Below, in pieces: positions 4,147 through 17,949 of a DNA stretch of 30,741 nt. Position 1 is the stretch's first letter. Every line of letters begins with the position of its first letter. Under the pieces are notes generated by a model. That model saw only the letters and a program-made list of their open reading frames with translations. It did not search any database and was not told the origin of the DNA. A program made the translations under genes and the position numbers. Source of the DNA: Anaeromyxobacteraceae bacterium (lineage in GTDB: Bacteria > Myxococcota > Myxococcia > Myxococcales > Anaeromyxobacteraceae); contig DAIEMM010000130.1 in the NCBI GenBank assembly GCA_027349605.1, positions 1 through 30,741 on the forward strand. Direction: 5' to 3'.

Positions 4147-4172
4147 CCCGCCATCCCCGGAGACCTCCACCG

Positions 4173-6146
4173 ATGCCCGCACTGTCATCCTCCGATCTCG
4201 TCGCGCCGCCGCCCGCTCCCCGCCCGGTCGAGGTGACGGACCTGGACGCATATCGTCGCCTGCATGCGCAGAGCTTGGCCGACCCGGAGGGCTTCTGGCG
4301 CGAGCGCATCGCTCCGTTCCGCTGGACCCGCCCGCCGGATCGGATCCTGGAGGGAGACGGCCCGGGGGCTCGCTGGTTCGTGGGGGGGCAACTGAACGTC
4401 GCCGACAACGCCCTCGACCGCTGGGTGGACGAGGGACATGGAGATCGGACCGCCCTGATCTGGGAGAGCGAAGGAGTCGATCACCTTCGGCGGCCGCTGG
4501 AGACTCGCCAATATTCGTTCCGGGAACTGCGCGACGCCGTGGCACGGGCAGCGGGGGCGCTCCGCGACCTGGGGGTGCGGCAAGGCGACCGCGTCACCGT
4601 GTACCTGCCCATCGTCCCGGAACTTCCCATCGCCATGCTGGCGTGCGCCCGGCTGGGAGCGGTCCACAACGTCATCTTCGCCGGCTTCCCGGACCAGGCG
4701 CTGCTCGACCGGATAGAGGACAGCCAGAGCAGGGTCGTCGTGACGGCGGACGGCGGCTACCGTGGTGGCAAGGCCATCGCCCTCAAGTCCGTCGTCGACG
4801 CCGCGGCACGCAGGACGTCGCTCGTCGAGAAGGTCCTCGTGCTACGGCGGACGGGCGAGCCCGTAGGCTGGACGCCCGGCCGCGACCACTGGTGGCACGA
4901 GGCCTTGGAGAGAGCGACTCCCGCCGCTCCGGTGCCGGTGGCGAGCGATGCGCCCCTCTTCGTCATGTATACCTCCGGATCCACGGGGAAGCCGAAGGGG
5001 ATCACGCACGGTACTTCCGGATATCTGGTCCACACGGCGCTGACGGCACTCCATGCCTTCGACCTCCGGCCCGGAGACGTGAACTGGTGCACCGCCGATC
5101 CGGCCTGGATCACGGGTCACACCTACACGGTCTACGGGCCGCTGCTGTCCGGCGCGGCCACAGTGCTCTTCGAGGGAGTGCTCGGCTTTCCGGACTGGGA
5201 TCGGGCCTGGGACGTGGTCGAGCGGCACCGTCCGGCGGTGCTCTACTCCACGCCCACCCTCGTCCGGGCCTGGCTCCGGCAGGGGGACGCAGGCCCGCGA
5301 GAGCGAGACCTCTCCTCCCTCCGCCTGCTCGCGTCGGTGGGGGAACCCATCAGTCCGAGCGTCTGGCACTGGTTTCGGGACGTCGTGGGAGGCGGACGGA
5401 CGCCGGTGGTCGATACGTGGTGGCAGACCGAGGCCGGCGCCGCGATGATCTTCCCGTTGCCCTACGTCACCCCGGCCAAGCCCGGCTCGGCCACCCTGCC
5501 GTTCTTCGGGGTCGATCCTGCCATCGCCGATGCAGAGGGTCGATTGCTCGACGGGGAAGCGGCGGGTCAGCTGGTGATCCGGCGTCCCTGGCCAGGCATG
5601 CTGCATGGCATCTGGGGCAGCCCGGAGCGGTATCGCGACACCTACTGGAAGTCGGTACCAGGTGCGTTCGTCACGGGCGACGCCGCGCGCCGGGACGCCG
5701 ACGGGTATGTCTGGATCGTGGGGCGTACCGATGACGTCATCAAGGTGAACGGGCACCGGCTCGGGACGGCCGAGATCGAGGGAGCGGTCGTGTCCCACCC
5801 GGCGGTGTCGGAGAGCGCGGTGGTCGGCGTGCCCGACGAGCGGTCAGGTGAGGCGGTGCTCGTCTTTGTCGTGCTGAAGCCCGGATTCTCCGCCGACGCG
5901 GAGCTCGAGTCGGGAATCGTCCACGCCATCGAGGCGATGGTTGGAAAGCTGGCGCGACCGCGCGAGCTGCGCTTCCTGAAGGCGCTTCCCAAGAACCGAA
6001 GCGGCAAGATCTTGCGGCGCATGCTGCGGGAGTGGGCCGTGACCGGCAAGGTGACGGGTGACACGACGACGCTCGACGACGCCTCGGCGCTCCCTCCGTC
6101 GACGGATGGCGAGCTCGTGGATCACGTGCAGAGGGGCATCGAGTGA
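4173..6146 (+). CDS. acs: Acetyl-CoA synthetase (AMP-forming)
   Basis: YTSGSTGKPKG, WCTADPAWITGHTY, SVGEPI, DTWWQTE, RTDDVIKVNGHRLG, RSGKILRR (Lys equivalent to the acetylated K609). Confidence 0.85.
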   Translation: MPALSSSDLVAPPPAPRPVEVTDLDAYRRLHAQSLADPEGFWRERIAPFRWTRPPDRILEGDGPGARWFVGGQLNVADNALDRWVDEGHGDRTALIWESEGVDHLRRPLETRQYSFRELRDAVARAAGALRDLGVRQGDRVTVYLPIVPELPIAMLACARLGAVHNVIFAGFPDQALLDRIEDSQSRVVVTADGGYRGGKAIALKSVVDAAARRTSLVEKVLVLRRTGEPVGWTPGRDHWWHEALERATPAAPVPVASDAPLFVMYTSGSTGKPKGITHGTSGYLVHTALTALHAFDLRPGDVNWCTADPAWITGHTYTVYGPLLSGAATVLFEGVLGFPDWDRAWDVVERHRPAVLYSTPTLVRAWLRQGDAGPRERDLSSLRLLASVGEPISPSVWHWFRDVVGGGRTPVVDTWWQTEAGAAMIFPLPYVTPAKPGSATLPFFGVDPAIADAEGRLLDGEAAGQLVIRRPWPGMLHGIWGSPERYRDTYWKSVPGAFVTGDAARRDADGYVWIVGRTDDVIKVNGHRLGTAEIEGAVVSHPAVSESAVVGVPDERSGEAVLVFVVLKPGFSADAELESGIVHAIEAMVGKLARPRELRFLKALPKNRSGKILRRMLREWAVTGKVTGDTTTLDDASALPPSTDGELVDHVQRGIE

Positions 6147-6163
6147 CTCGACTGGTCACGGAG
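6139..6163. promoter_or_regulatory. Candidate sigma54-activator binding site (UAS A)
   Basis: TCGAGTGAC-TCGACTG-GTCACGGAG; perfect GTGAC-N7-GTCAC core; overlaps the acs stop codon; centre is 71 bp from the GG of the promoter at 6222. Confidence 0.55.
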
Positions 6164-6220
6164 TAGTTGGAAGGGCCACTCCAGGCTTGGTCAAGTGTGC
6201 GCAACCACGAGGCGCAGGCC

Positions 6221-6236
6221 TGGCTCGACGCATGCA
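6221..6236 (+). promoter_or_regulatory. Sigma54 -24/-12 promoter for small secreted protein P1
   Basis: TGGCTCGACGCATGCA (GG-N10-GC); 18/19 identical over 6220-6238 to 15210-15228. Confidence 0.65.
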
Positions 6237-6250
6237 CTGAACCCCTCCAT

Positions 6251-6295
6251 GCTCGGAGTGAGCGAAGGCGGCCGGCATCCGGCCCCGCACCGAGC
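6251..6295 (+). ncRNA. Structured 5-prime leader, copy 1 (candidate cis-regulatory RNA)
   Basis: GCTCGG-AGTG-AGCGAA-GG-C-GGCCGG-CAT-CCGGCC-CC-GCA-CCGAGC; same architecture as 15242-15284, with compensatory changes. Confidence 0.5.
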
Positions 6296-6311
6296 GGGAA
6301 AGGATGAGTTC

Positions 6312-6563
6312 ATGTCGAAGCGAATCGCATTGGCAGTGCTGATGTCGGTTCTGGCCGCGCCGGGTCTGGCAACCGAAGGCAATCAGCCGAGGGAGGCCTC
6401 CGAGGACCCCTCCACGAAGACACGCTCGAAGACCGTGTGCGTGTGCACCTTCGAAGGACGACCCGACCCGGCACGGTCGCATCCCTGTGCTCCGGTCCAG
6501 TCGGAGAAGACCGAGACCCGGAGCAACATCGACGAGCACCCCGAGGACTATCAGGCAGGCTGA
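6312..6563 (+). CDS. Small secreted CxC protein P1 (83 aa), uncharacterised
   Basis: ATG after AAAGGA; Sec-type signal MSKRIALAVLMSVLAAPGLA; mature part has VCVC plus HPC; has its own promoter. Confidence 0.65.
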   Translation: MSKRIALAVLMSVLAAPGLATEGNQPREASEDPSTKTRSKTVCVCTFEGRPDPARSHPCAPVQSEKTETRSNIDEHPEDYQAG

Positions 6564-6585
6564 CGGCGTCGACCGGCACCCAGCA

Positions 6586-6622
6586 AGGCCCTCCTCTCCG
6601 ATGACGCGAGGGAGGAGGGCCT
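6586..6622. terminator. Probable bidirectional terminator hairpin between convergent genes
   Basis: Perfect 11-bp inverted repeat AGGCCCTCCTC...GAGGAGGGCCT between the stops at 6563 (+) and 6622 (-). Confidence 0.5.
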
Positions 6623-6936
6623 CAGGGAGGGTCGTCATCGGTCGCTGCGTCCGTCCAGGCGTGCGGCACCACGTCGCCGAGCGACACACCGAGGTAGGCC
6701 AAGATCCGCACGTCACGCCGCGTGAGGCCGCGAACCCGAAACGTGCCACCCTCACGCTCGACGGCGCGCACGAGCAGAGTGACCGCGAAGATGTCGGGCT
6801 GCCGGCAGGCTCCGAAGTCCAGCATCACCACGCGCCCGCCGATGGCTCCCTCGATCTGACGGGCGACCCGCCACGCCTCGCTGACGTCGAAGTCCTGGGT
6901 CAGGGAAACGACCAAGCTGGATGCTCCATCACCCAC
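6622..6936 (-). CDS. STAS-like small protein (104 aa)
   Basis: GTG 6936, 10 nt after GGAGG; pattern LTQDFDVSEA...VVMLDFGACRQPDIFAVTLLV...RVRGL...VRILAYLG resembles STAS/anti-anti-sigma domains. Confidence 0.6.
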   Translation of the reverse strand: MGDGASSLVVSLTQDFDVSEAWRVARQIEGAIGGRVVMLDFGACRQPDIFAVTLLVRAVEREGGTFRVRGLTRRDVRILAYLGVSLGDVVPHAWTDAATDDDPP

Positions 6937-6953
6937 GGCGGCGGTACCTCCAT

Positions 6954-7379
6954 TCACAGCTCGGAAATCCCGAGCTCGCGCAGGCGTTGCCGGATCGTGC
7001 GAAGGCATCGCTCCTCGCACGCGTCGACGGGGAGTTCCACCTCGCCACGGTGCTCGACCCGGATGGCGACGAAGACCTCGTCCGAACCGGGGAGCACCTT
7101 GGAGTCGTAGAGCGAGCGATCGCAGGGCACGACCTCGATGCGAGTCTGGGCCACCTCCGGCGGGAGAGCCCAACGGACGACCTGCTCCAGTTCCTCGAGG
7201 AGCGGCCGACACTGGTCGCATCCCGGCATCGCATGTGCGGCCTTGTCGTGGACGCCCCAGACCCGCACCTCGAAGCCCACCGCCATGGGACGGTGGTCGC
7301 GATAGATGATGTCCGGGCGGACATCGAAGTGCACATGTCGGCGCTTGGCGAGGGCGCGAAGCTGCTGGAGGGTATCCAT
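6954..7379 (-). CDS. Hypothetical Cys/His-rich cytoplasmic protein (141 aa)
   Basis: ATG 7379 lies 7 nt after the upstream stop; HVH, PGCDQC and DACEERC motifs; operonic spacing. Confidence 0.7.
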   Translation of the reverse strand: MDTLQQLRALAKRRHVHFDVRPDIIYRDHRPMAVGFEVRVWGVHDKAAHAMPGCDQCRPLLEELEQVVRWALPPEVAQTRIEVVPCDRSLYDSKVLPGSDEVFVAIRVEHRGEVELPVDACEERCLRTIRQRLRELGISEL

Positions 7380-7386
7380 GTGTGCC

Positions 7387-7731
7387 TTACGGCGCCGGCG
7401 GACGCTTCTGGGTGGCTGGCTCGCCGGGACGCGCCAGCTGGATGGAAGTGGCCGTGACCACGCCGTCGACCTTCCTCCCGTGGACGACGGCGCGAAGGCC
7501 CGGGGCAATGTCCGCGGGCCTGGCGGCAACGCCTCCCAGGGTGATGCGCGTCTGCGGAGTCAATGCATAGCGCTGCTCGTGCCCGTCTCCGGTCCGCACG
7601 GTCACCTGCTTCGTGTCGGCAGAGAGGACTTCCCCGCGCATGTCGACGCCGCCCTCGTGCGCCGAGGCGGGGGTCGTGAGAATCAGCGCCGCGAGAAGAA
7701 AAGCAGGAGTGATCAGCGATGGCTTCGGCAT
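7387..7731 (-). CDS. Secreted beta-barrel (DUF5666-like) protein (114 aa)
   Basis: Signal peptide ending ASA followed by HEG (N-terminal His); RGEVLSAD...VTVRT...YALTPQTRI...DIAPGLRAVVHG...ATSIQL is a DUF5666-like repeat. Confidence 0.7.
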   Translation of the reverse strand: MPKPSLITPAFLLAALILTTPASAHEGGVDMRGEVLSADTKQVTVRTGDGHEQRYALTPQTRITLGGVAARPADIAPGLRAVVHGRKVDGVVTATSIQLARPGEPATQKRPPAP

Positions 7732-7750
7732 GTGGAGTCTCCGCGCTGCG

Positions 7751-8362
7751 TCAGTGGGAATGGTGGCTGTCCTTGGCTGGCCCAGCTGGAATTGATTGAA
7801 GGAACTCCTGGTCCTGCTGGAGCTCGCGCCACTCGCCGGGGCTCCTCGGGTTGAGCCGTTCCATCTCGAGGAGCTCCTCCGGTCCGAGACGCGGCAGGTG
7901 ACGGATGAAGAGCACCAGCTTCCAGCTGACCGCGGGAGACACCTCGCCGCCCCATCCGGGCATCCCGGTGAAGCGGATGCCATTCTCGATGACGTGGAAG
8001 AGCTCACCGTCGGTCAGGGACTGCGTGGCGGGAAGCCGCATGTCGGGAGCGCGAGGGTAGAGCCGTCGTCCCAGTGCCGTCTGCCCACTCCCGTCGTTAC
8101 CGTGACACGAGGCGCAGTGATCCGCGAAATGCGCTCGCGCCTCGACCAGCGTCTCGCGAGTCGAGGGAACGGGATTGACCTGGCTCCGGACCGCGGACGG
8201 GATCGCCACTCCGCGCACGAGGCGGGCGAGCCGGGCCTCGACGGCACCGGGCTCGTCCCGGGCGCTCAGTCCACTCTGCCGGACCGCCACGACCCCGAGA
8301 GCGAGCCCAGCCACCGCCAGGAGCCCGACGACGGCGAGGATTCGGTACCCGATCCGCAGCAT
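7751..8362 (-). CDS. Membrane-anchored monoheme c-type cytochrome (203 aa)
   Basis: N-terminal TM helix; HCASCHG heme motif; YPRAPD; LTDGELFHVIENGIRFTGMPGW (axial Met); C-terminal SHHSH. Confidence 0.85.
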   Translation of the reverse strand: MLRIGYRILAVVGLLAVAGLALGVVAVRQSGLSARDEPGAVEARLARLVRGVAIPSAVRSQVNPVPSTRETLVEARAHFADHCASCHGNDGSGQTALGRRLYPRAPDMRLPATQSLTDGELFHVIENGIRFTGMPGWGGEVSPAVSWKLVLFIRHLPRLGPEELLEMERLNPRSPGEWRELQQDQEFLQSIPAGPAKDSHHSH

Positions 8363-8390
8363 TCGAGGCTCGCTCGCGCCAGGGTGTCGA

Positions 8391-8906
8391 CTAAAGCGTC
8401 GACGTGCCCGGGTTGGAGGCGAGCCGAGCGGTCCGGGCGGCAGGCTGGAGTTGCTGGGCCCGGCGGAGAATCTCGGAAGCAACCGCGTCATCGGTCGAAC
8501 GAATCACGATGACGAATCGGCTTCCGTCGAAGCGAACACTGGCGGAGGCGCCCGGCACGAAGGCCGGGCAGGCGTTCATCCACGGCTCCTGTCGCGCCAT
8601 CGCCTCGGCGAGGTGGCAGTCGGCGATGCGCTGGAGTGCCTCGACCGAAAGTCCCGGCACCTGCCGAACGGAGATGATGGCGCCGCGCACGATCGGAAGG
8701 GCGCTGCTTCTCGAGACGCGGTAGCGCTGTTCGCGGAGCGCCGTCACCGACTCGACGTCCTCGGCGCGAACGAACAGGCTCATGTTGCGTTCGGCGTCGC
8801 TGAGGCCGGCGCACGCCTGGGCGGTGGTAGGGGGAGAGGGCGGTGCGCTCGCGGGAGAGCCAGAGACTGCGAGCGCGGCGGAACTAAGGATTGCGATGAG
8901 TTGCAT
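8391..8906 (-). CDS. Hypothetical secreted protein with three Cys (171 aa)
   Basis: ATG 8906 after GGAG; signal peptide MQLIAILSSAALAVSG; QAC, ADCH and ACP motifs; first gene after the sigma54 promoter at 8943-8958. Confidence 0.65.
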   Translation of the reverse strand: MQLIAILSSAALAVSGSPASAPPSPPTTAQACAGLSDAERNMSLFVRAEDVESVTALREQRYRVSRSSALPIVRGAIISVRQVPGLSVEALQRIADCHLAEAMARQEPWMNACPAFVPGASASVRFDGSRFVIVIRSTDDAVASEILRRAQQLQPAARTARLASNPGTSTL

Positions 8907-8942
8907 GGTGTGACTCCGGAAGGGGTGGACCAGCCTAGGTTC

Positions 8943-8958
8943 AGCAAGGTTCATGCCG
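8943..8958 (-). promoter_or_regulatory. Sigma54 promoter for the 8906-6622 operon
   Basis: CGGCATGAACCTTGCT (GG-N10-GC, consensus TTGCT). Confidence 0.65.
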
Positions 8959-9019
8959 TGGAGGCTTGGCCAAGGGTTCCGGGGCTTTCCCGGAGCAGAG
9001 GTCCCGAGCGTCTGGAACC

Positions 9020-9044
9020 TAATGTGACCGTGCCGGTTTCGCTG
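9020..9044. promoter_or_regulatory. Candidate activator binding site (UAS B)
   Basis: TAATGTGAC-CGTGCCG-GTTTCGCTG; the reverse strand reads CCACAGCG like the CCACAGTG of UAS C and E; centre is 75 bp from the promoter GG. Confidence 0.55.
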
Positions 9045-9083
9045 TGGGAAGCCCGGTGATCAAGAACGTCGCCGGGCCGGGCA

Positions 9084-10175
9084 TCAGACATCCTGCAGTT
9101 CCGCGACGGGGTCCCGGAGGGCCGCGGCGGCACCGGTCGGGAGCGCCGCCGCGATGCCAACGAGGGTCGCCGCGGCGATTGCCGAAGCCGCCAGCGGAAG
9201 AGCCGGGAGGACCGACGACGCGGCCCTGGCATCCAGGGCGAGTGTCGCGAGGGCGCCGAGCGCAAAGCCCACGACCCCGCCGGCCGCCCCGAGGGCCGCC
9301 GACCGCACCACCCCGGCCAGGGTGATGTCGTAGCCGGCTGCTCCGATCGCAACCAGCATGGCCACCTCGCGCCGACGCTCCTGGGCATCCAGGTGCGAGG
9401 CCACGGCCAGGCACAGGAGCGACACGATCCCCGTGACCCACCAGATGAGATGCCGGTGCGACGCCAGCGCATCCTGGGCCTCGCTCTCGACGACCGCCCC
9501 CCGGTCCGGACGCAGGACGGAGATGCCCGCCACCGAAATCTCGATGGCCGAGGCCACACTGGAGATGCTGGCGTCCGGGCGCAGGAAGAGGCGCAACTCC
9601 GTCGGCTGAACCTGCGCTTCCACTCGAGTCCGGGGCGCGGTCGGCAGGAAGGCAGCCGTGTCGTCCGCGTCCGCCCGCGACGGCAGGATCGTCGCGACCC
9701 GGTATGGCTCACCCAGGATCTCCACCATCTGGCCGGGCTGGACGCCCAGGGACGAGGCAAGGACCGGCCCGAGCGCGACCTCGCCGGCCAGGAGCACGGC
9801 GTCACCTCCCGACGTTGGCTCGACCCACATGACCAGGTTTCGCCTGCCGGCAACGGGGAGCCAAGCTACACGTCGTTGCTCGAGCGCGGCCAGGGCGGGG
9901 CCTGCCGTCCGTCGGACCGCCTCGACCGTGCCCGGTGGAAGAGCCGGTGAAGTCGTACCTTCCTGGACGATGGATTGCGGCGATGCGCCCGCCGGGAGGA
10001 TCCGTAGGGCCGGTCCAACGGCATCGAACTGGATCGCGATGGCCGCCTCCCTTGCGCGCGAGACCAGCTCGACGGTCACCGAGAGCGCAACCGCCGACGC
10101 CACCACCAGGACGGCGCCATAGGCCCGGCCGCGGCGGGAGAGGAGCTCGCGCAGGGCGAACCACATGATCGTCAC
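9084..10175 (-). CDS. MacB/FtsX-family ABC transporter permease (363 aa)
   Basis: N-terminal TM, large periplasmic domain, QERRREVAMLVAIGA motif, three C-terminal TMs, ALRDPVAELQDV end; start overlaps the ATPase stop (alternative ATG 10166). Confidence 0.8.
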   Translation of the reverse strand: MTIMWFALRELLSRRGRAYGAVLVVASAVALSVTVELVSRAREAAIAIQFDAVGPALRILPAGASPQSIVQEGTTSPALPPGTVEAVRRTAGPALAALEQRRVAWLPVAGRRNLVMWVEPTSGGDAVLLAGEVALGPVLASSLGVQPGQMVEILGEPYRVATILPSRADADDTAAFLPTAPRTRVEAQVQPTELRLFLRPDASISSVASAIEISVAGISVLRPDRGAVVESEAQDALASHRHLIWWVTGIVSLLCLAVASHLDAQERRREVAMLVAIGAAGYDITLAGVVRSAALGAAGGVVGFALGALATLALDARAASSVLPALPLAASAIAAATLVGIAAALPTGAAAALRDPVAELQDV

Positions 10176-10870
10176 GATGCGAGCCTCCGCAGCCGGCCTG
10201 GCCGGTCGTCGGTCACGCGCCCCGCGACGATCGAGACGATGCGGTGAGCCCGCTCGGCCAGAGCGGCGGAATGGGTGACGACGACGATGGTCTGTCCCTG
10301 GCCGTTGAACTCGGAGAGCAGATCGAGAAACTGGGTGCCGTTCGCGGAGTCGAGGCTGCCGGTGGGCTCGTCCGCGAGGAGGACCTTGGGCCGGTTCACG
10401 AGCGCCCGCCCGATCCCGACCCGCTGTCGCTCGCCCACGGAGAGCTGGGCGGGGTAGTGCCGGGCGCGCGCCACCATGCCGAGCTTCTCGAGCATGCCAT
10501 GGGCTAGGCTCCTCGCCTCGCGCCGTGACCGGCCCGCGAGCATCGCGGGGAACGCCACGTTGTCGACGACGTCGAGCCAGGGGACGAGATTGAACGTCTG
10601 GAAGACGAATCCGACCTCCGTCCGCCGCAGCGCGGCACGCCTCGACGGGCCGAGGGAATAGACGTCCGTGGCGCCCAGATGGACCTTGCCAGAGTCCGGC
10701 CCGGAGATCCCTCCGAGGGCGAAGAGAAGGCTCGACTTCCCGCTCCCGCTCGGCCCGACGACCGCAACGAATTCGCCCTCGTCGACCGACAGGGTCACCT
10801 CGTCGAGCGCCCGAACGGTCGATCCGTCGTCGGTCGTGAAGGTCTTGGTGATGTGGTCTGCGACGATCAT
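10172..10870 (-). CDS. LolD/MacB-type ABC ATP-binding protein (232 aa)
   Basis: GPSGSGKSS, GFVFQTFNL, LSVGERQRVGIGRAL, LLADEPTGSLD, VVTHS. Confidence 0.9.
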   Translation of the reverse strand: MIVADHITKTFTTDDGSTVRALDEVTLSVDEGEFVAVVGPSGSGKSSLLFALGGISGPDSGKVHLGATDVYSLGPSRRAALRRTEVGFVFQTFNLVPWLDVVDNVAFPAMLAGRSRREARSLAHGMLEKLGMVARARHYPAQLSVGERQRVGIGRALVNRPKVLLADEPTGSLDSANGTQFLDLLSEFNGQGQTIVVVTHSAALAERAHRIVSIVAGRVTDDRPGRLRRLAS

Positions 10871-10871
10871 G

Positions 10872-11969
10872 TCAGGACTCCCGAAGGACTTCGGAGGGAT
10901 CGAGTGCGACGGCGCGGCGCGTCGCCAGTGCAGCGGCCCCGGCGGCCACCAGACCAGCACCGATGACCGCGAAAGCGAACAGGTCGAGGGACGGGGATGC
11001 GGCAGCTCCAAGCGTGCGCGCGGAGAGCCAGCGGGTCGCCGGGATGGCAGTGAGGTACCCGGCCACTCCGCCGGCGATTCCGGACAGCCCAGCCGACGCG
11101 ACGAAGAGCGCCGCGACGACGGAGGGCGAGACCCCGATCGCCGCGAGCAATCCGAGGTCGCGCCGTGCCCTGCGCGCCTGCGCGGAGACGAGCGCGGCGA
11201 CGAGGCCGGCGACCGTCAGGGATCCAGCGATCAGGAGGGCCATGGCGTAGCGCCCCATCGTCGCGACCGCTCCCTTCTGGGCCTTCACCACGCCAGCGAC
11301 CGTGATCGCCCGGGAGCCGGGGAGGATGCGCTCCACCTCCTTCCCGAGCGCGGCCACGTCGATTCGGCACCAGCAACCAGCGAGTCGCAGGGCGTTGATG
11401 GCACCGGGCTGGCCGAGGACTTGCTGGGCCGTGACGAGGGGAACCAGGATCGCGTCCTCGAGGCCATCGGGCGGGCGGTCCATCACGCCCGCGACGGAGA
11501 GGCTGGCACCGTTGAGCTCGATGATGGAACCAGGCCGGAAACCGAGCCGGCCCGCCGCGGAAGGAGACAGCATGGCGGGCGCCGTCCCCACCACCGGCGA
11601 CCGGGGCCAGCTTCCCTCCTCGCCCACGAGGAGGACGTCCCGCCCACCGACGACCACGTGCCCGTACAGCCTGGCCTGGCTCCCGCGGATGTCCGAGGCG
11701 ATCTCGGACGACTTCAGGATGACCGGTGAGGCGTCGGGGAGCACCGACGGCCCGTACCGCTGCAGGTGAAAGTCACCAACGTCCTGGTCCCTGGGCAAGA
11801 CCAGCATGTTCGACCCGAGCCGGTGGGCCAGGTCATGGATGGCGCCATCAGCGGACGACGTCACCGCTCTCTGGGCGACGAGGGCCGCCACGATGAGGGC
11901 GACTGCCAGCGCGACGAGCGCGTACTCGCCCCAACGCACTCGTAGATACGCGAAAGTGATCCTGATCAT
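10872..11969 (-). CDS. MacB/FtsX-family ABC transporter permease with periplasmic CWC motif (365 aa)
   Basis: LGSNMLVLP after TM1, RRDLGLLAAIG motif, LDPSEVLRES end; periplasmic LRLAGCWCRID. Confidence 0.8.
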   Translation of the reverse strand: MIRITFAYLRVRWGEYALVALAVALIVAALVAQRAVTSSADGAIHDLAHRLGSNMLVLPRDQDVGDFHLQRYGPSVLPDASPVILKSSEIASDIRGSQARLYGHVVVGGRDVLLVGEEGSWPRSPVVGTAPAMLSPSAAGRLGFRPGSIIELNGASLSVAGVMDRPPDGLEDAILVPLVTAQQVLGQPGAINALRLAGCWCRIDVAALGKEVERILPGSRAITVAGVVKAQKGAVATMGRYAMALLIAGSLTVAGLVAALVSAQARRARRDLGLLAAIGVSPSVVAALFVASAGLSGIAGGVAGYLTAIPATRWLSARTLGAAASPSLDLFAFAVIGAGLVAAGAAALATRRAVALDPSEVLRES

Positions 11970-12016
11970 TCAGGCGTGCCCCCGGTCCGATGTGCTCGCA
12001 TTCGACGATGCGACGA

Positions 12017-12032
12017 TGCATGGGGCGGGCCG
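12017..12032 (-). promoter_or_regulatory. Sigma54 promoter for the ABC operon
   Basis: CGGCCCGCCCCATGCA (GG-N10-GC); 93 bp from the UAS C centre. Confidence 0.5.
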
Positions 12033-12111
12033 GAGCGGTCGCAATGACGTTTTCCCGCCATTCCTCGTCATACCCGCCGTCTTCAGGACGAAGTGGCCGA
12101 GCCGGCCGCCA

Positions 12112-12136
12112 CAGTGTGACGTTGCTGGTCACGCTG
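12112..12136. promoter_or_regulatory. Candidate activator binding site (UAS C)
   Basis: CAGTGTGAC-GTTGCTG-GTCACGCTG; the extended CGCCACAGTGTGA-N8-GTCACGCTGG is shared exactly with UAS E. Confidence 0.75.
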
Positions 12137-12195
12137 GTGCGGTCCCGATAGAGCGGAGCCTCCTGTGCTCGTGTGCTCAAGCCGGGAAGGCAGGA

Positions 12196-12211
12196 GGGCA
12201 CGCAAACTGCA
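12196..12211 (+). promoter_or_regulatory. Sigma54 promoter for the 12225-13133 genes
   Basis: GGGCACGCAAACTGCA; 73 bp from the UAS C centre. Confidence 0.6.
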
Positions 12212-12224
12212 GAAGCATGTTCCT

Positions 12225-12683
12225 GTGAGCGAACGAACAAGAGAGGCGGCGACCGAACCAGGACTCCCCGACCCAGGCGGATGCGCATTCGGCCCAGGGT
12301 TCTTTCTTGGTCAGCTCCGGGCGTTCGCGCGTGAAAGGTGTCCCGACCCAGCGGAGGGGCTACCGTCCGTGTCGGTCCACCTCGCCACGGGCGAGGTGCT
12401 GTCACTGTGTCACGTGGCAGGGCTCGCCCCGTGCTTCGTCGCACTCGTAATCCGTGAGGCAGACCGTGGCGACGGGCGAATGGCCACCGAGCTCGTCCCT
12501 TACTCGCTCATCACGCGCGTGACCATCCGAGCCGCGACCGGGGCAGATCGCCATGTGGGGTTCGACGCCACCCATGTGCCGCACATCCTCTCCGGGCGAC
12601 GCCCTCTCAGTCCGGAGGCGACCCTTCGAAGGGTGGCCATGCCTCCCGGAGTCGCTACCGTGGTGGAAGAAGACCGCGAGTAA
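12225..12683 (+). CDS. Hypothetical Cys-containing cytoplasmic protein (about 152 aa)
   Basis: GTG 12225 chosen because the ORF-track start 12165 lies upstream of the promoter; GCAFGPGFFLG, RCPDPAE, LCHV and ELVPYSLITRV look protein-like. Confidence 0.65.
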   Translation: MSERTREAATEPGLPDPGGCAFGPGFFLGQLRAFARERCPDPAEGLPSVSVHLATGEVLSLCHVAGLAPCFVALVIREADRGDGRMATELVPYSLITRVTIRAATGADRHVGFDATHVPHILSGRRPLSPEATLRRVAMPPGVATVVEEDRE

Positions 12684-12698
12684 GCGGAGGCAAGGCGA

Positions 12699-13133
12699 AT
12701 GAGTGGCCCGCGACTCCTAGTCCTCGGCGAGAAGCCACGACGAATCCTAGCCACCGCGCTGGGGCGCTCCTGGGAGATCACGGTCGCCCATGACGGCAGC
12801 GAGGCCCTGACGCTGCTCGCCGCCGAGTCTTTCGACGTTGCTTTCCTCGCGGATGAAGGCGGCGCACAGCACATCGATGCCGACTTCGTCCAGGCTGCGC
12901 ATCAAGTCGCTCCCGAGACCGAGATCGTCACCGTGTCCCATCTCCGTCTGGGATCGTGGCTTCCCGGGGAATGCCCGCCAGATGTCTACGGATTCCTGAC
13001 CTGGCCGCTCGATTCCGAACTCGTGGTGCGAACCCTTCGGGGTGCGGTCGAGCGTCGACGATTGCGCGCGGAGATCGAGTATCTGCGCGCCGAGCTTCGA
13101 CGGAGAGTTGGAATTCGAGACGTGGCCTCGTGA
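12699..13133 (+). CDS. Atypical (pseudo) receiver domain with NtrC-type coiled-coil linker (144 aa)
   Basis: RBS GGAGG; AHDGSEALTLL..ESFDV pattern; acidic pocket, phospho-Asp and Lys replaced (FLTWP); ends AVERRRLRAEIEYLRAEL. Confidence 0.7.
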   Translation: MSGPRLLVLGEKPRRILATALGRSWEITVAHDGSEALTLLAAESFDVAFLADEGGAQHIDADFVQAAHQVAPETEIVTVSHLRLGSWLPGECPPDVYGFLTWPLDSELVVRTLRGAVERRRLRAEIEYLRAELRRRVGIRDVAS

Positions 13134-13197
13134 GTCGGGCGCCCAGGGTTCATGGACCTAGCTAGCCGGCAATCCGGGTGCTGGAGCATTGGAGACT

Positions 13198-13259
13198 CCC
13201 GGCTGCCTGCTCGAACCATGAAGCGGGGGGGGGATGACATGGCGAGCAGGCGAGCCGGG
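13198..13259 (-). ncRNA. Long hairpin with C9-containing loop downstream of an orphan sigma54 promoter (candidate sRNA)
   Basis: On the + strand: CCCGGCT-GCCTGCTCG-AA-CCATG [17-nt loop with G9] CATGG-CGAGCAGGC-G-AGCCGGG, i.e. 21 bp paired. Confidence 0.4.
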
Positions 13260-13300
13260 CGAGGTCGGGTTCAACCGGCCCCACTGCATGAAAATCAAGA

Positions 13301-13316
13301 AGCACGATGCGTGCCA
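13301..13316 (-). promoter_or_regulatory. Near-consensus sigma54 promoter with no convincing downstream CDS
   Basis: TGGCACGCATCGTGCT; 94 bp from the UAS D centre. Confidence 0.6.
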
Positions 13317-13396
13317 TGTCGGCCCCAGCGTGGGCGAGTCAAGGATTGCCGGGATCGCGATGTCCGGGGGATGAGAGCAAGCGTCCGCAACAGTCA

Positions 13397-13421
13397 CGGC
13401 GTGACTGAGGGGGTTACACGG
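13397..13421. promoter_or_regulatory. Candidate activator binding site (UAS D)
   Basis: CGGCGTGAC-TGAGGGG-GTTACACGG; GCGTGACTGAGG is repeated at 13448-13459 as an extra half-site. Confidence 0.6.
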
Positions 13422-13469
13422 GGCGGTAGCGGCAACTCGTCAATGGAGCGTGACTGAGGAGCCGATGGA

Positions 13470-14540
13470 ATGGACGTCGGAACAGTTGGCGAAGGGACCA
13501 TCATGCAACAGACTGCGAGACGAAGGATCGCGTTCGTGCTGGGTGGCGGCGCCGCTCGCGGGCTGGCCCACATCGGGGTGCTGGAGGTGCTCGAGCGCGA
13601 GGGAATCCCCGTTGACTACCTGGTGGGGAGCAGCATGGGCGGCCTCATCGCGGCGCTGCACGCTTCCGGATTGAGGGCCGCGGAGATCGCCGAGGTGGCA
13701 TCGCACTTCCGATTTCCGCCTTGGTTCGTTCCGGGGTGGACGTTGTCCTGGGAGAGAATCTTCCCGTCTGCAGCAACCGAACTGGCGGGACTCACATTCA
13801 ACGAGGCCTTTCGCCCGATGGCCCTGGTCGCGGTCGACGTCGAGAGCGGGAAGCAGGTCGTGCTCAGGTCCGGGGAGCTTCTACCCGCCGTCAAGGCGAC
13901 GTGCGCGGTGCCGGGGGTATTGCCCCCCGTCGAGATCGGAGGGCGATGGCTCATCGACGGAGGGCTGGTGAACCTCCTCCCCGTTGACGTCGCCCAGATG
14001 TTCGACCCTGGGGTGATCGTCGCCGTGAAGGTGGGCGCGCAGCGATCCCGGACGATGCCCCGTTTGCACGAAGGAACGGAGACTCTGACCGAGTGGGTAG
14101 CGAGGATCGTTCCCAGCCCCTGGAGTGCTCGCCGAAGCTTCGAGCTGCTCGTCCGCGGGGCCGAGATCGCCCTCGATCGGCAATACACCTTGGCGGCGGC
14201 CATGGTGGGGCCAGACGTGCTCGTCGAGATAGACGTCGGGACCATGGGATTGCGGGACTTCCACCGACTCGACGAGGCCGTTCGAGCAGGACGGCGAGCC
14301 GCGGAAGCGGCCCTGGCGCGCCTGTTCGAGGCGATCGAGTCCGCGAACGAGGACACCGCACCTGCCTGCGCCATTCGAGATCTGATCTTCGACCCGATTT
14401 GCGAGATGGTCATCACCGCTGGCCGGGCCCGGGCGACGCTCGATTGCAGGGGCAGGACGTTCTACTTCTGTTCGGCCAACTGCCGCGACGAGTTCGCGAG
14501 GGGTCTGCACCGCCTGGATGACCCGTCGACGAGTGGGTGA
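13470..14540 (+). CDS. Patatin-like phospholipase fused to a C-terminal YHS/TRASH domain
   Basis: GGGAARG oxyanion motif, GSSMG nucleophile, DGG; C-terminus DPICEM...RATLDCRGRTFYFCSANCRDEF; start 13470 or 13503. Confidence 0.85.
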   Translation: MDVGTVGEGTIMQQTARRRIAFVLGGGAARGLAHIGVLEVLEREGIPVDYLVGSSMGGLIAALHASGLRAAEIAEVASHFRFPPWFVPGWTLSWERIFPSAATELAGLTFNEAFRPMALVAVDVESGKQVVLRSGELLPAVKATCAVPGVLPPVEIGGRWLIDGGLVNLLPVDVAQMFDPGVIVAVKVGAQRSRTMPRLHEGTETLTEWVARIVPSPWSARRSFELLVRGAEIALDRQYTLAAAMVGPDVLVEIDVGTMGLRDFHRLDEAVRAGRRAAEAALARLFEAIESANEDTAPACAIRDLIFDPICEMVITAGRARATLDCRGRTFYFCSANCRDEFARGLHRLDDPSTSG

Positions 14541-14559
14541 CGGTGCCCCCGTTTGGTCG

Positions 14560-14928
14560 TCACTCGACGACGACCGTGCCGCCGATCGAGTCCTTCGGGC
14601 AGGCGTAGCGGATCGTCCCGCTTTCCTCGGCCTTGAGCGCCACGGCTACTGGCTCATCCTTTGGCAGTTCCCGGACGAGTCCAAGATATCTGATGACGAC
14701 GGCGGTCGCACAGGTGTGATCTACGGTGCGTGTGAACACCAGCCTGATGTTCTCCCCCTTCTTCACGTGGATCTCCGAGGGGACGAATCCGCTGGAGTCG
14801 ACCGTGACCTTGACGATTCGCGGTCGGGGTGTCCAGGGATCCTGGATGGGGTGGAACTGTGCAAGCGCGGGGCTCGCCGCGAAGAGTGTATATGCAGCCC
14901 CGAGCGTGTACCAGGTCTTCTTGCGCAT
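14560..14928 (-). CDS. Secreted cupredoxin-domain protein (CupA-like), Met ligands absent
   Basis: Signal peptide; VTVDSSGFVPSEIHVKKGENIRLVFTR..DHTCAT..; YACPKDSIGG instead of FACxMxM; start 14928 or 14934. Confidence 0.8.
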   Translation of the reverse strand: MRKKTWYTLGAAYTLFAASPALAQFHPIQDPWTPRPRIVKVTVDSSGFVPSEIHVKKGENIRLVFTRTVDHTCATAVVIRYLGLVRELPKDEPVAVALKAEESGTIRYACPKDSIGGTVVVE

Positions 14929-14988
14929 CGTCATCCCCTGCCTGTCTGTGGGTTCTTGGTGGAGTGGAACCGTATGTGGCCATGCCTG

Positions 14989-15004
14989 TGCAGGGCGCGT
15001 GCCG
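14989..15004 (-). promoter_or_regulatory. Sigma54 promoter for the island cupredoxin
   Basis: CGGCACGCGCCCTGCA; 115 bp from the UAS E centre. Confidence 0.6.
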
Positions 15005-15105
15005 TCGCGGGTGAGAAGATGGCGATGCCGCCGCTCCCAGGAAAACCCGACGTCGAACTGGATGAAGGCACCTGGGATTCCACGAGGTGAAGTGTTCAAA
15101 CGCCA

Positions 15106-15130
15106 CAGTGTGATGGCGGACGTCACGCTG
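15106..15130. promoter_or_regulatory. Candidate activator binding site (UAS E)
   Basis: CAGTGTGAT-GGCGGAC-GTCACGCTG, located between divergent sigma54 promoters. Confidence 0.75.
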
Positions 15131-15210
15131 GGCGCGCTCAGGCCTTCGCGGTCAGGTTCCGAACGGGGCTGGGTACGGTTCGACCGACCTCGCGGGCGAT
15201 GGCCGCCCGC

Positions 15211-15226
15211 TGGCGCGACGCATGCA
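15211..15226 (+). promoter_or_regulatory. Sigma54 promoter for small secreted protein P2 (possibly also HD-GYP)
   Basis: TGGCGCGACGCATGCA; 94 bp from the UAS E centre; near-identical to 6221-6236. Confidence 0.65.
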
Positions 15227-15241
15227 CTCTCACCTCTTGGC

Positions 15242-15284
15242 CTCAGCAAGTGCCAAGGAGACCGGCATCCGGTCCCATGCTGAG
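15242..15284 (+). ncRNA. Structured 5-prime leader, copy 2 (candidate cis-regulatory RNA)
   Basis: CTCAGCA-AGTG-CCAA-GG-A-GACCGG-CAT-CCGGTC-CC-A-TGCTGAG. Confidence 0.5.
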
Positions 15285-15301
15285 CGTGCGAGGACGCGCC
15301 A

Positions 15302-15586
15302 ATGACTCTGCGAATCGTCGGAGCGGTACTGATTGGAGCCCTGTCGACACCGGGGCTGGCATGGGGAGACGGGGGAGGAGGGGGAGGGGCTCGTGAATTC
15401 GCGGGCCCGCTGAGGCCAACGGAGGTGGTCGGGGTCCCGCTCTCCAGGAGCGAAGCGAGCCCCACCTGCAGATGCATGATGGCGGAACCGCACGACGCCA
15501 CCCCGGACAAGTCGTCCGCCAGCTCAAAGCCCCCTGAAGGGGGTGAACGGGCTACGGGCCGGGGCCACGTCGAGGAGCATCACTGA
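15302..15586 (+). CDS. Small secreted CxC protein P2 (94 aa), uncharacterised
   Basis: Signal MTLRIVGAVLIGALSTPGLA resembles P1; poly-Gly; TCRCMM; C-terminal HVEEHH. Confidence 0.65.
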   Translation: MTLRIVGAVLIGALSTPGLAWGDGGGGGGAREFAGPLRPTEVVGVPLSRSEASPTCRCMMAEPHDATPDKSSASSKPPEGGERATGRGHVEEHH

Positions 15587-15664: not shown

Positions 15665-16630
15665 ATGCCTGTCCTTCAAGACGTGACGAATGCGTCTCGC
15701 AAGGGCTACTGGATCGTAGCGAGTTTCGCGGTGATCGGGTTCGCCCACCTCGCGGTGGGGAACGCTACCCACGCACAGCACCTCGTTCATCTGGTGTTTG
15801 GTGCGGCGTACCTGCTGCCCATCGTTGCCGCTGCCGCCTGGCTCGGTGCCCGTCCAGCTCTCCTGCTCAGCGCGGCTTCGGCGGCGACGTACCTGCTGCA
15901 CGCCAGGACCATCAGCGGTAACGGACCCATGGGGATCGCCAACGCGCTCGTGCTGTCCGCCGTGTTCCTGTTCGTCGGAGTGGTGTCGGCCACGCTCGTC
16001 GCGACGGCCGACCGCGAGCGGCGAGTTCGGCTCGACGGGGAAAGGACCGCGCAGCGCGATGCCATGATGCAGGCGCTCGCCAGCCTTTCGGGTGCTCTCC
16101 GGCAGCGGGACGATGGGACAGCCGCCCACTGCGAGCGTGTGGCGTGCATCGCGGCACGCGTTGGCGCGACCCTCGGGCTGTCAGAGGAGCGGCTCCAGGT
16201 GCTCCACCTCGCGGCGCTCGTCCATGACGTTGGGAAGACCGGCGTCCGTGACGACGTACTCCTGAAGCCGGGAGAGCTGACTGCGGAGGAGCGTGGCCGG
16301 ATCGAGCGGCACACGGTCCTTGCAGCCGAAATCCTGCGGCCCATAAGGGGGGCCGAGGAGATTGCCGAGATCGTCTTGTGTCACCACGAGTGTCCCGACG
16401 GGAGCGGATACCCTAGACGGTTACACGGCAACCAGATCCCGGCCCTTGCCGGAGTACTGCGCGTCGCTGACGTGTTCGCGGCCTTGGTCGAACCCCGTGC
16501 GTACAAGGTTCCGATGCGCCCGGAGGAGGCTGTCTCCCGGATGAGCTCGCTCCAAGGAAGGCTCGATCCGGACGGGTTCGCGGCACTGCAGCGCCTCGTG
16601 GCCGCCGATACTCCGGGCGATCTGGCATGA
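15665..16630 (+). CDS. Membrane-bound HD-GYP phosphodiesterase (probable c-di-GMP PDE)
   Basis: About 4 N-terminal TMs; HCERV, LVHDVGK, HHECPDGSGYP, ADVFAAL..PRAYK; RBS GAGG. Confidence 0.85.
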   Translation: MPVLQDVTNASRKGYWIVASFAVIGFAHLAVGNATHAQHLVHLVFGAAYLLPIVAAAAWLGARPALLLSAASAATYLLHARTISGNGPMGIANALVLSAVFLFVGVVSATLVATADRERRVRLDGERTAQRDAMMQALASLSGALRQRDDGTAAHCERVACIAARVGATLGLSEERLQVLHLAALVHDVGKTGVRDDVLLKPGELTAEERGRIERHTVLAAEILRPIRGAEEIAEIVLCHHECPDGSGYPRRLHGNQIPALAGVLRVADVFAALVEPRAYKVPMRPEEAVSRMSSLQGRLDPDGFAALQRLVAADTPGDLA

Positions 16631-16748
16631 CACCCCGGGAACGAGACGTCGGCGACGGTCGACGGGTCGCTGGAAACGAGGTGAAGACCATCGGGGACGC
16701 AGCGTGGCTGCGCCGCCCCTTGCTCGACTAGCCATTCCCCACGGGGGG

Positions 16749-17114
16749 TCAGCTCGTCTGTGGCGAAGCGGTGCTCCCGGAATCTGGCGCGTTGGGCCTC
16801 GCATCGGCTCCGGCCACGCACTCGCATTTCGCGGTCGAATGACCAGCAGCAGTGCCCGTCACGCTGGGATGCGACACGCGGGGCGTAATGATGTCGGCGA
16901 AAAAGGTGACCGGCGGGACGACGGTGATGAACAGGACCGCCATCGTGCCCAGCAAGGCGCCCGGCCCGGTCCAGGAGGATGCCGCGATGGTGGAACCAGT
17001 GTTCTGTGCGGGAGATGCCACGGTTCCATCGGTGCTCGTCGCCGCCTTCGGAAGCGGAGTGCCTGTGTAGGATGCGGCGTTGGCGACAGCTCGCATGTAT
17101 CTGGCTACGTTCAT
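16749..17114 (-). CDS. Hypothetical 121-aa single-TM protein with KCEC motif
   Basis: Start overlaps the DoxX stop (ATGA), suggesting translational coupling; hydrophobic segment followed by CxC; otherwise low complexity. Confidence 0.4.
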   Translation of the reverse strand: MNVARYMRAVANAASYTGTPLPKAATSTDGTVASPAQNTGSTIAASSWTGPGALLGTMAVLFITVVPPVTFFADIITPRVSHPSVTGTAAGHSTAKCECVAGADARPNAPDSGSTASPQTS

Positions 17115-17662: not shown

Positions 17663-17675
17663 TGCCCCGATGCGG

Positions 17676-17691
17676 TGCAATGGGCTTGCCA
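17676..17691 (-). promoter_or_regulatory. Sigma54 promoter for doxX
   Basis: TGGCAAGCCCATTGCA, near consensus; only GTCAC half-sites upstream (17788, 17808). Confidence 0.6.
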
Positions 17692-17933
17692 ATCCATCGG
17701 GGAATCAACTTGAGCCTCGATGGGCGCCTTTCACGCGGTCGTCTTCACGACGCCGCGCCAGGACCCCGCACCTTCGGCCAGACCTCCGTCACTCGGGAAG
17801 CCACCCCGTCACTGGACGAGTCTCGTTCCTTGGGCATGCGGAGAGGCTCCGCGCGGGCAGTCCTGAGCGCCCAGCACCTTCCAACCTGCCAAGTTCCACG
17901 ACTTCCACACGGCTCAGCGACTCGCGACACAGA

Positions 17934-17949
17934 CGGCACAGCGGATGCA
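17934..17949 (+). promoter_or_regulatory. Sigma54 promoter for the receiver gene at 18028
   Basis: CGGCACAGCGGATGCA, divergent from the doxX promoter. Confidence 0.5.

Follow-up and report, generated by a model that had tools for sequence, protein, structure and literature searches.

Two paralogous genes for predicted periplasmic CxC mini-proteins share a sigma-54-type promoter, a leader and a signal peptide in a metal-related island of an Anaeromyxobacteraceae bacterium

The stretch of DNA analysed here, hereafter the window, comprises 30,741 nucleotides of contig DAIEMM010000130.1 from an Anaeromyxobacteraceae bacterium and carries two paralogous genes, A and B, whose small products have a predicted Sec-type signal peptide and a Cys-x-Cys (CxC) motif. 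The two genes share a promoter that reads as sigma-54 type, a leader predicted to be structured, and signal-peptide codons; their mature parts have diverged, and they lie in an island that also encodes cupredoxins and components of a Cus-type efflux system. We propose, with a probability of about 0.5, that the products are disordered periplasmic peptides, free of post-translational modification, that bind Cu(I) or another soft metal through thiolates alongside the efflux system. What is new here is an unannotated sequence family of metal-stress-type periplasmic mini-proteins with an unusual portable regulatory cassette.

Gene A (6312-6563, plus strand) encodes 83 amino acids and gene B (15302-15586, plus strand) encodes 94. 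Each is preceded by a copy of the 19-mer CTGGC[T/G]CGACGCATGCACT, located on the plus strand at 6220-6238 for A and 15210-15228 for B, and the distance from the 19-mer to the ATG is exactly 92 nt in both cases. The two copies are identical at 18 of 19 positions, as the initial annotation had reported, and when up to 3 mismatches were allowed they were the only matches in the window, where 0.02 were expected. The similarity extends from the promoter through the signal-peptide codons as a collinear, ungapped block in which 97 of 152 nt are identical (promoter, 18/19; leader, 41/73; signal-peptide codons, 38/60), compared to 42 +/- 5.6, with a maximum of 63, for the same-window background (z = 9.8). 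A homologue from a related metagenome strain, P0010, matched both A and B by tblastn (6.7e-23 and 7.4e-11, respectively), and A and B are therefore true paralogues. The collinear block and the bridging P0010 sequence bear out the earlier proposal of a family in which the regulatory and export parts are retained and the mature part changes; the leader hairpin within the conserved block and the palindrome upstream of each promoter are additions to that annotation. A Shine-Dalgarno sequence lies 8-9 nt upstream of the ATG in both genes (AAGGA at ~6300-6304 in A).

The shared 19-mer has the form of a sigma-54 -24/-12 promoter. Promoters of this type follow the consensus TGGCACG-N4-TTGCW, with GG at -24 and GC at -12 separated by a fixed spacing of 10 nt. 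The A copy, TGGCTCGACGCATGCA, reads TGGC-N8-TGCA with its GG and GC 10 nt apart, the B copy is TGGCGCGACGCATGCA, and the GG-N10-GC spacing was invariant in every homologue found, including the most diverged. No sigma-70-like hexamer pair was found near A or B, and rpoN is present in the genome, at C317. The loose pattern TGGC-N8-TGCW was not enriched genome-wide, with 323 matches versus 511 in a reversed control, and is thus unusable alone for promoter mapping. The initial annotation had described the two promoters as identical; near-identity held for both units, but the promoter is not private to them and appears to belong to a larger local sigma-54 regulon with an enhancer-like palindrome, described below. 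When the whole assembly (2.54 Mb in 514 contigs, 74% complete) was searched with the 19-mer, one additional site was returned, on a different contig. This near-copy, GTGGCGCGACGGATGCACT (2 mismatches; G000 contig C148, locus L003, ~1517-1499, minus strand), precedes a gene (L003:1049-1474, minus strand) for an unrelated secreted protein of 141 amino acids with a Lys/His/Gly-rich C-terminal tail and no Pfam family.

The leaders that follow the promoters, at 6244-6303 in unit A and 15234-15293 in unit B (both plus strand), are predicted to fold into the same two-tier stem-loop. The outer stem of the A leader is GCUCGG/CCGAGC and its inner hairpin is GGCCGG-CAU-CCGGCC, and in the B leader compensatory changes turn these into CUCAG/CUGAG and GACCGG/CCGGUC, respectively. 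This fold is possible in the A, B and P0010 lineages of relatives, with 3 of the 18 predicted pairs showing compensatory changes, and in G221, a third species of the genus, the leader of an A-type gene reaches the same predicted shape with other letters (GCCCGG/CCGGGC and GGGGAC/GUCCCC). The structure ends ~10 nt before the Shine-Dalgarno sequence, which is left unmasked. Its possible roles include mRNA stability or a site for a regulator. A scan of the window against Rfam gave no family match, and neither the 'a'-type leaders nor the G217 leader folded into an A/B-type hairpin.

Sec signal peptides consist of a basic n-region, a hydrophobic h-region of 10-15 residues and small residues at -3 and -1. 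The N termini of A (MSKR, then IALAVLMSVLAA, then PGLA/T; codons 6312-6371, plus strand) and B (MTLR, then IVGAVLIGALST, then PGLA/W; codons 15302-15361, plus strand) both have this n/h/c layout, with G-L-A before the predicted cut and neither a lipobox nor a twin-arginine motif; the signal peptides were assessed by eye, not with SignalP, and the pattern is kept across the family. The CxC motif is VCVC in A (residues 42-45, CxC codons 6438-6446, plus strand) and TCRC in B (residues 55-58, CxC codons 15467-15475, plus strand). A has a third Cys within HPCAP and a conserved C-terminal motif, NIDEHPEDYQAG, and B has a Gly-rich tract and the C terminus GHVEEHH. On re-reading, the signal-peptide strings, both Cys motifs and the His/acid C-terminal tails quoted in the initial annotation were all correct. 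The mature parts are ~7 kDa, acidic (pI 5.0-5.7) and of low complexity, with 79% disorder-promoting and 10-14% hydrophobic residues; Cys accounts for 3 of 63 residues in A and 2 of 74 in B (3-5%), and there are 0-2 Met. AlphaFold2, run on the family alignment, returned one 4-residue helix and otherwise almost no secondary structure, with a predicted local distance difference test score (pLDDT) of 60 and a predicted template modelling score (pTM) of 0.13, a low confidence that may partly stem from the 10-row alignment. By composition and by this model, the mature parts are apparently intrinsically disordered and have no predicted fold, in agreement with the earlier description of them as probably disordered.

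Pfam and NCBIfam assigned no family to A, B or any of the new members, and a profile search of 1.84 billion representatives returned only 4 clusters. Word-indexed homologue searches with A recovered close relatives and P0010 only, those with B and with the diverged paralogue P0012 recovered only themselves, a pattern scan of species-representative genomes with the A2 profile found nothing, and look-alikes of A in the ESM Atlas reached scores of 0.80 to unnamed clusters only, which is chance level. A DNA pattern combining the promoter and the inner hairpin had 109 matches in a metagenome collection from which near relatives may be missing; since none was followed by a signal-peptide/CxC frame, these matches were taken as chance. 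A profile search of 200 same-order genomes returned only chance-level matches; CxC members in other species and in another genus were reached through synteny. Because synteny found these diverged members, the absence from the profile searches is partly a matter of sensitivity.

As found, the family extends beyond near-identical metagenome strains to another genus and to two further species of the same genus. In one relative, a single sigma-54 promoter precedes P0012 (ICAC ... EELNRIWTSP) and, as second gene behind it, the A-type P0011 (CCPC ... RNIDEHPEDYQAG). In another species of the genus (G127), P0014 (ACHC ... EEVKRIWSSP) follows the PALP-CBS gene and has a sigma-54 promoter; in a different genus (G212), a member of 74 amino acids (SCQC, VDEH, ... 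MVWSAP) with a sigma-54 promoter adjoins the end of a P-type ATPase gene; and the A-type member of G221 (TCTC ... SNIDLHPEDYR) was matched with an hhalign probability of 97.6%. A signal peptide, a disordered linker, the CxC, a short C-terminal motif and a sigma-54 promoter were found together in A, B, P0010, P0011, P0012, P0014 and the G212 and G221 members, and the cassette with its sigma-54 promoter recurs in four species. In an alignment of 10 sequences spanning six sub-lineages and two genera, the only invariant columns were the signal-peptide Pro and the two Cys of the CxC, which is the sole invariant feature of the mature region. The initial annotation had named in advance the loss of the CxC among homologues as evidence against its proposal, and the motif was kept in 10/10 aligned sequences.

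Look-alikes in two further genera (G217 and G222) share the layout of the family: their ATG lies 80-90 nt downstream of a sigma-54-like promoter, their signal peptide ends in PGLA or PALA, and GCGC or SCDCPCGHHG stands near the C terminus. Since alignment to the family profile is confined to their signal peptides, they were not accepted as members. One of them, the GCGC look-alike of G217 (L239:2-1704, minus strand), is the first gene of what appears to be an operon behind a sigma-54-like site; a gene for a 136-amino-acid protein with weak, sub-threshold DUF2946/DUF6153 similarity follows it, and an OEP gene comes last.

Among the relatives, an orthologue of B (TCTC ... RRIDEHH) was located at L009:6937-7224 and L008:2524-2811, where gene callers had missed it and called open reading frames in the wrong frame, and these relatives thus carry three paralogues: A, B and P0010. 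When P0010 (L008:5591-5881) was compared with the A copy at L006:8321-8572 and the B orthologue at L008:2524-2811, it was found to combine a B-like Gly-rich insertion with an A-like 3' half, and 39 of its last 40 nt are identical to the A copy of the same metagenome sample. This sequence pattern suggests that P0010 is a mosaic or an intermediate and that gene conversion has occurred between copies. The P0010 locus also contains a paralogue of the window gene at 12699-13133. The segment between the HD-GYP gene and the sulfite reductase gene (window 16617-18522) is variable: here it holds a DoxX_2-like gene and a gene for a receiver-domain protein, and in relatives it holds a different 2.1-kb insert that contains P0010. 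Because gene callers missed one copy and profiles missed diverged members, such mini-proteins are probably under-counted in GC-rich genomes.

Comparison of A with five orthologues from related strains gave a ratio of nonsynonymous to synonymous substitution rates (dN/dS) of 0.18-0.36, falling to ~0.1 between the CxC and the C terminus, where changes were counted at 4 of 97 nonsynonymous versus 9 of 29 synonymous sites. These values point to clear purifying selection on A, strongest in the C-terminal half. The initial annotation had described the mature regions as divergent except for the CxC, which stands for the comparison between paralogues but not within clade A, where the stretch from the CxC to ...NIDEHPEDYQ is strongly conserved. 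For B, the orthologue in L008/L009 shares 54% of residues, with a dN/dS of 0.74 and one in-frame 3-nt indel that leaves the frame intact; at this ratio B retains only islands, namely, the signal peptide, the Gly tract with AREFAG, S-x-SEA-x-x-TCxC and the terminal EHH. The ratio for B, together with the low-complexity composition, the fast divergence and the very narrow distribution (the 4 clusters noted above), would also fit young lineage-specific genes of little or no function, in which promoter and leader are conserved and the peptides, B above all, are drifting. We consider this very unlikely: purifying selection on A is clear, an in-frame indel leaves the reading frame open, the CxC does not vary between the genera, and the cassette with its sigma-54 promoter is found in four species.

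Palindromes lie upstream of both promoters. The palindrome of unit A, GTGACTCGACTGGTCAC (6143-6159), is a candidate upstream activating sequence (UAS) centred 70 bp before the -24 element, and its GTGAC half-site is kept in relatives. A second candidate UAS, GTGATGGCGGACGTCAC (15110-15126), lies 93 bp from the B promoter and ~115 bp from a sigma-54-like promoter, CGGCACGCGCCCTGCA (15004-14989, minus strand), of a divergent gene for a secreted cupredoxin_1 protein (14560-14934, minus strand), making it a candidate common site for B and the cupredoxin gene. It sits inside a 31-nt block that is 81% identical to 12107-12137. With up to one mismatch, GTGAC-N7-GTCAC occurs at 8 sites in the window compared to 1.7 expected; the window palindromes are 70-120 bp upstream of sigma-54-like promoters, and the window has at least four further operons, of envelope or metal function, behind the same pairing. 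A module at 12116-12211 (plus strand) contains a palindrome (12116-12132) and the sigma-54-like promoter GGGCACGCAAACTGCA (12196-12211), both of which are conserved islands in relatives, and a module at 13301-13417 (minus strand) contains a palindrome cluster (13390-13417, with a site at 13401-13417) and the sigma-54 promoter TGGCACGCATCGTGCT (13316-13301). The palindrome GTGACCGTGATGGTGAC (27028-27044) lies between the kinase operon and the cupredoxin-Cus operon, and the sigma-54-like promoter CGGCACGCCGAGTGCT (27152-27167, plus strand) would serve the plus-strand genes for a cupredoxin with a His-rich N terminus (27202-27618), OEP (27629-29011) and a CusB-like protein with a heavy-metal-binding domain (HMBD; 29031-30446).

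In relatives with 70-90% DNA identity, the palindromes and promoters stand out as conserved islands in otherwise diverged spacers. The corresponding site of the Cus-type operon in L008 is a perfect GTGAC-N7-GTCAC followed by AGTGTGAC, and it shows the extended motif CACAGTGTGAC that is also present at the B and 12116 sites. From these conserved islands and their common extended motif we infer one regulon, for which the adjacent two-component system would be the simplest controller. Outside the window, the assembly holds seven exact GTGAC-N7-GTCAC sites, which were set aside, as no sigma-54-like promoter lies within ~270 bp of them; given their GGTGAC...GTCACC flanks, they were taken as chance occurrences, probably inside coding sequence. 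In G212 (L216:1888-2000, minus strand), two direct copies of CACATCGTGACGCTCGCCG, which contains the GTGAC half-site, lie ~100 and ~190 bp upstream of the family member's sigma-54 promoter and may represent a possible enhancer. In some relatives (L017/L018 compared with window 1498-6146), A directly follows the PALP-CBS gene; in the window and L004-L006, a four-gene block (sulfonate-type ABC transporter and acetyl-CoA synthetase) lies between the two, and the sequence around the A palindrome is retained with or without this block. Further sigma-54-like sites in the window are CGGCATGAACCTTGCT (8943-8958, minus strand), which precedes the minus-strand operon at 8905-6622 and has no clear palindrome upstream, and the near-consensus TTGGCAAGCCCATTGCA (17691-17676, minus strand), which precedes the gene for a DoxX_2-like membrane protein (17111-~17560, minus strand).

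The candidate regulator of the palindrome-bearing promoters is an NtrC-family sigma-54 activator with receiver, AAA+ and HTH_8 domains (24064-25467, minus strand), encoded next to a HAMP histidine kinase with a His/Met-rich periplasmic sensor domain (25464-26930, minus strand). The best named relatives of the activator are a gene in an Anaeromyxobacter metagenome-assembled genome (72%) and a Corallococcus gene (61%), and comparison of the kinase sensor domain with solved structures returned nothing. An assignment of the activator as an orthologue of CorR was dropped, since the locus of its Corallococcus relative is not a copper cluster. The presence of small periplasmic-type products under sigma-54/NtrC-type control in the same island as this kinase would suit peptides that, once induced, return to the periplasmic sensor and modulate it, with or without metal, in the manner of ZraP or CpxP. 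The His- and Met-rich sensor domain and the very strongly conserved NIDEHPEDYQ motif of A, which resembles a docking motif, are in line with such feedback; against it, the peptides have no sequence relation to CpxP, Spy or ZraP, and other sub-lineages end in a different C-terminal motif (RIWSSP/MVWSAP). A complex prediction for mature A with the kinase periplasmic domain scored 0.00 and, having been run without controls, counts neither way. Overall, we regard feedback modulation as decidedly unlikely.

The window begins with the PALP-CBS gene, the sulfonate-type ABC transporter, acetyl-CoA synthetase, A and the minus-strand operon (8905-6622), which encodes a secreted protein, a cbb3-type cytochrome c and a STAS protein. 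Its middle holds a MacB/Lol-like ABC system, a patatin-like phospholipase with a C-terminal YHS-type metal-binding domain (13470-14540; E = 1.2e-4, below the Pfam cut-off), the divergent cupredoxin, B, the HD-GYP protein and the DoxX_2-like protein, and its end holds sulfite reductase, sirohaem synthase, OsmC, the two-component system and the cupredoxin-OEP-CusB operon. The cupredoxin_1 domain was found twice. Between the convergent gene A and the minus-strand operon lies a GC-rich hairpin (6589-6623) that is terminator-like, lacks a U tract and is likewise conserved behind the L015 homologue; a search for canonical terminators near A returned none. The membrane HD-GYP-type (HD_5) protein is encoded 78 bp after B (15665-16630, plus strand), no terminator was seen in the gap, and relatives have these genes in the same order; this gene may be co-transcribed with B. 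In relatives, a heavy-metal P-type ATPase gene (L004:3-1574) lies ~8 kb upstream of A. By gene content the window reads as a metal/envelope island interleaved with cysteine and sulfite genes, and the cupredoxins, OEP, the CusB-like protein with HMBD, the YHS domain and the His-rich sensor kinase mark the genomic setting as one of metal homeostasis, which speaks for the initial annotation.

Such a setting, joining metal stress with cysteine and sulfite assimilation genes, raises the alternative that the products are thiol-redox peptides, in which the CxC would form a strained, reactive disulfide and act as a redox buffer or isomerase mimic, guarding envelope cysteines from metal-catalysed mis-oxidation with no sequestration. 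In work by Woycechowsky and Raines, CxC peptides are said to mimic protein disulfide isomerase. The invariance of the CxC and the DoxX_2-like membrane protein behind another sigma-54-like promoter of the island favour this alternative as well, but the peptides have no thioredoxin fold, no partner oxidoreductase gene adjoins them, and the conserved His/acid C-terminal motifs would be left unexplained. We judge it unlikely.

Under the metal-binding proposal, each gene would be transcribed only from its sigma-54 promoter, activated from the GTGAC-N7-GTCAC enhancer, most likely by the NtrC-type regulator encoded 9-18 kb away, and the neighbouring cupredoxin genes and the cupredoxin-OEP-CusB efflux operon also seem to be under the same two-component system. 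The transcripts would carry the conserved 5' stem-loop, and the peptides would be exported by the Sec route, lose their signal peptide and remain in the periplasm. There, the CxC thiolates, with help from a third Cys or a His close by and from the Asp/Glu/His motif at the C terminus, would bind a soft metal, for which Cu(I) is likeliest and Cd or Zn are also candidates, and the peptides would buffer the metal or hand it to the cupredoxin/Cus-type export machinery. In the unstructured C-terminal extension of CopY and in alpha3 of CadC, the CxC serves as a ligand set for Cu(I), Zn(II), Cd(II) and Pb(II) (PMC11672702).

Several observations weigh against this proposal. Each peptide has only 2-3 Cys, and during oxic growth the Dsb system could oxidise a CxC located in the periplasm. 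In subfamily scoring, the P-type ATPase encoded near A in relatives passes the Cd/Zn cut-off but not the Cu cut-off, so the metal is not fixed as Cu. A adjoins sulfur-assimilation genes (PALP-CBS and the sulfonate-type ABC transporter), and a thiol/redox role fits these neighbours equally well. The activator's nearest Myxococcaceae relative, at 61%, lies outside any copper cluster, so the term 'CorSR-like' rests on architecture and context. In L009, the B palindrome and the -24 element are only ~25 bp apart, an unusually short distance for an enhancer; B evolves near neutrality outside its few islands; and the depth of the alignment qualifies the absence of a predicted fold.

Should the peptides bind metal, they would add a third way of handling soft metals in the periplasm to the two represented by folded chaperones (CusF, CopC) and by enzyme-modified peptides (bufferins): a CxC peptide that is bare and disordered and has no need for a maturation enzyme. 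A broader and more tentative possibility, to which we give clearly less than even odds, is that they form an undescribed class of periplasmic metallochaperones or buffers that are disordered, thiolate-based and modification-free, and that their genes are part of a self-contained cassette that duplicates, moves within a metal island and recombines between copies, P0010 with its B-like and A-like parts being such a mosaic; this cassette would comprise the enhancer palindrome, sigma-54 promoter, structured leader RNA, Sec signal and CxC core. If so, Anaeromyxobacter-type bacteria would have in it a rapidly evolving first defence against soft metals. The locus also reads as a compact sigma-54 regulon with a single type of palindrome, six or more promoters and an adjacent two-component system, and it could serve as a model for the coordination of efflux, cupredoxins and small envelope proteins by an enhancer-binding protein in Myxococcota.

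Among known systems, CusF of the E. coli cusCFBA operon is a periplasmic Cu(I)/Ag(I) chaperone with a folded beta-barrel and a Met/Met/His(Trp) site, and its expression is sigma-70/CusR dependent. The window peptides resemble it as small Sec-type proteins encoded with or near CusCBA-type efflux genes and predicted to be induced by a metal-sensing two-component system. They differ in having CxC thiolates, a sigma-54-type promoter, no predicted fold and no sequence similarity to CusF, and the CusF/Ec OB-fold domain was not detected in them by Pfam, by fold prediction or by Met content (0-2 Met). ZraP, from the ZraSR system of E. coli and Salmonella, is a helical, oligomeric zinc binder of the CpxP/Spy family. 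The likeness to ZraP is that of a small periplasmic protein with a sigma-54 promoter under an NtrC-family regulator of a nearby two-component system, as predicted here; the window peptides differ in being half its size and unstructured by prediction, with no Pfam or NCBIfam match to the LTXXQ/Metal_resist (CpxP/Spy/ZraP) domain and almost no predicted helix. PcoE and SilE are proteins of about 120-140 amino acids, plasmid-borne in enterobacteria, with Met/His motifs and a helix gained on binding. They share with the window peptides secretion, a largely disordered apo state and induction together with Cu/Ag efflux genes (all three predicted here), and they differ from them in ligand set, for which Cys-x-Cys, His and acid residues are the candidates here.

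The initial annotation had offered metallothioneins and bufferins as models, and neither comparison held. Metallothioneins are ~15-30% Cys in clustered CxC/CxxC motifs and are usually cytoplasmic, whereas the window peptides have only 2-3 Cys (3-5%), a signal peptide and no match to the bacterial metallothionein families of Pfam. In bufferins (BufA1/DUF2282 and BufA2/BUF_6/12Cys), Cys residues are turned into thiooxazoles by an adjacent MNIO (DUF692) enzyme with DUF2063; their precursors have 4, 6 or 12 Cys and a predicted fold, and in Caulobacter they are controlled by an extracytoplasmic function (ECF) sigma factor (PMC11626156). The window peptides resemble them in their Sec signal peptide, conserved Cys, copper-stress setting and proposed role as a periplasmic metal buffer (PMC11626156), and a DoxX-like gene is present in the island; these likenesses would suit precursors of a bufferin-like metallophore, that is, a ribosomally synthesized and post-translationally modified peptide (RiPP) whose Cys are converted by an enzyme encoded elsewhere. 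The peptides differ, however, in having 2-3 Cys, no predicted fold, a sigma-54-type promoter and no DUF2282 or BUF signature. Neither the window nor the ~20-kb neighbourhoods of relatives were found to contain an MNIO (DUF692, PF05114) or a DUF2063 gene, and a search of the 74%-complete assembly for PF05114 likewise returned none. We therefore consider a RiPP origin highly improbable, and the 'bufferin-like' label does not apply.

The CXC(X4CXC) of the CopY C terminus and the CxC of CadC alpha3 represent the same minimal motif as that of the window peptides (PMC11672702), although CopY and CadC are cytoplasmic DNA-binding repressors and the motif here is in a free peptide that is predicted to be exported. 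The M. xanthus curA cluster is copper induced and controlled by sigma-54 and CorSR (PMC3707914). The window shares with it a HAMP kinase and sigma-54 activator, a first gene that encodes a His-rich cupredoxin_1 protein, a cbb3-type cytochrome c, a YHS domain and several sigma-54 promoters with mostly envelope products. It differs in that no CxC mini-proteins have been described in curA and in that the window has a Cus-type resistance-nodulation-division (RND) system, not CuoA/CopA; the match to curA/CorSR rests on domain architecture and neighbours, the activator's 61% Myxococcaceae homologue being in a non-copper locus. By analogy, the closest counterpart of the window peptides would be ZraP in regulation, CusF in position and presumed job, and bufferins and PcoE/SilE in concept.

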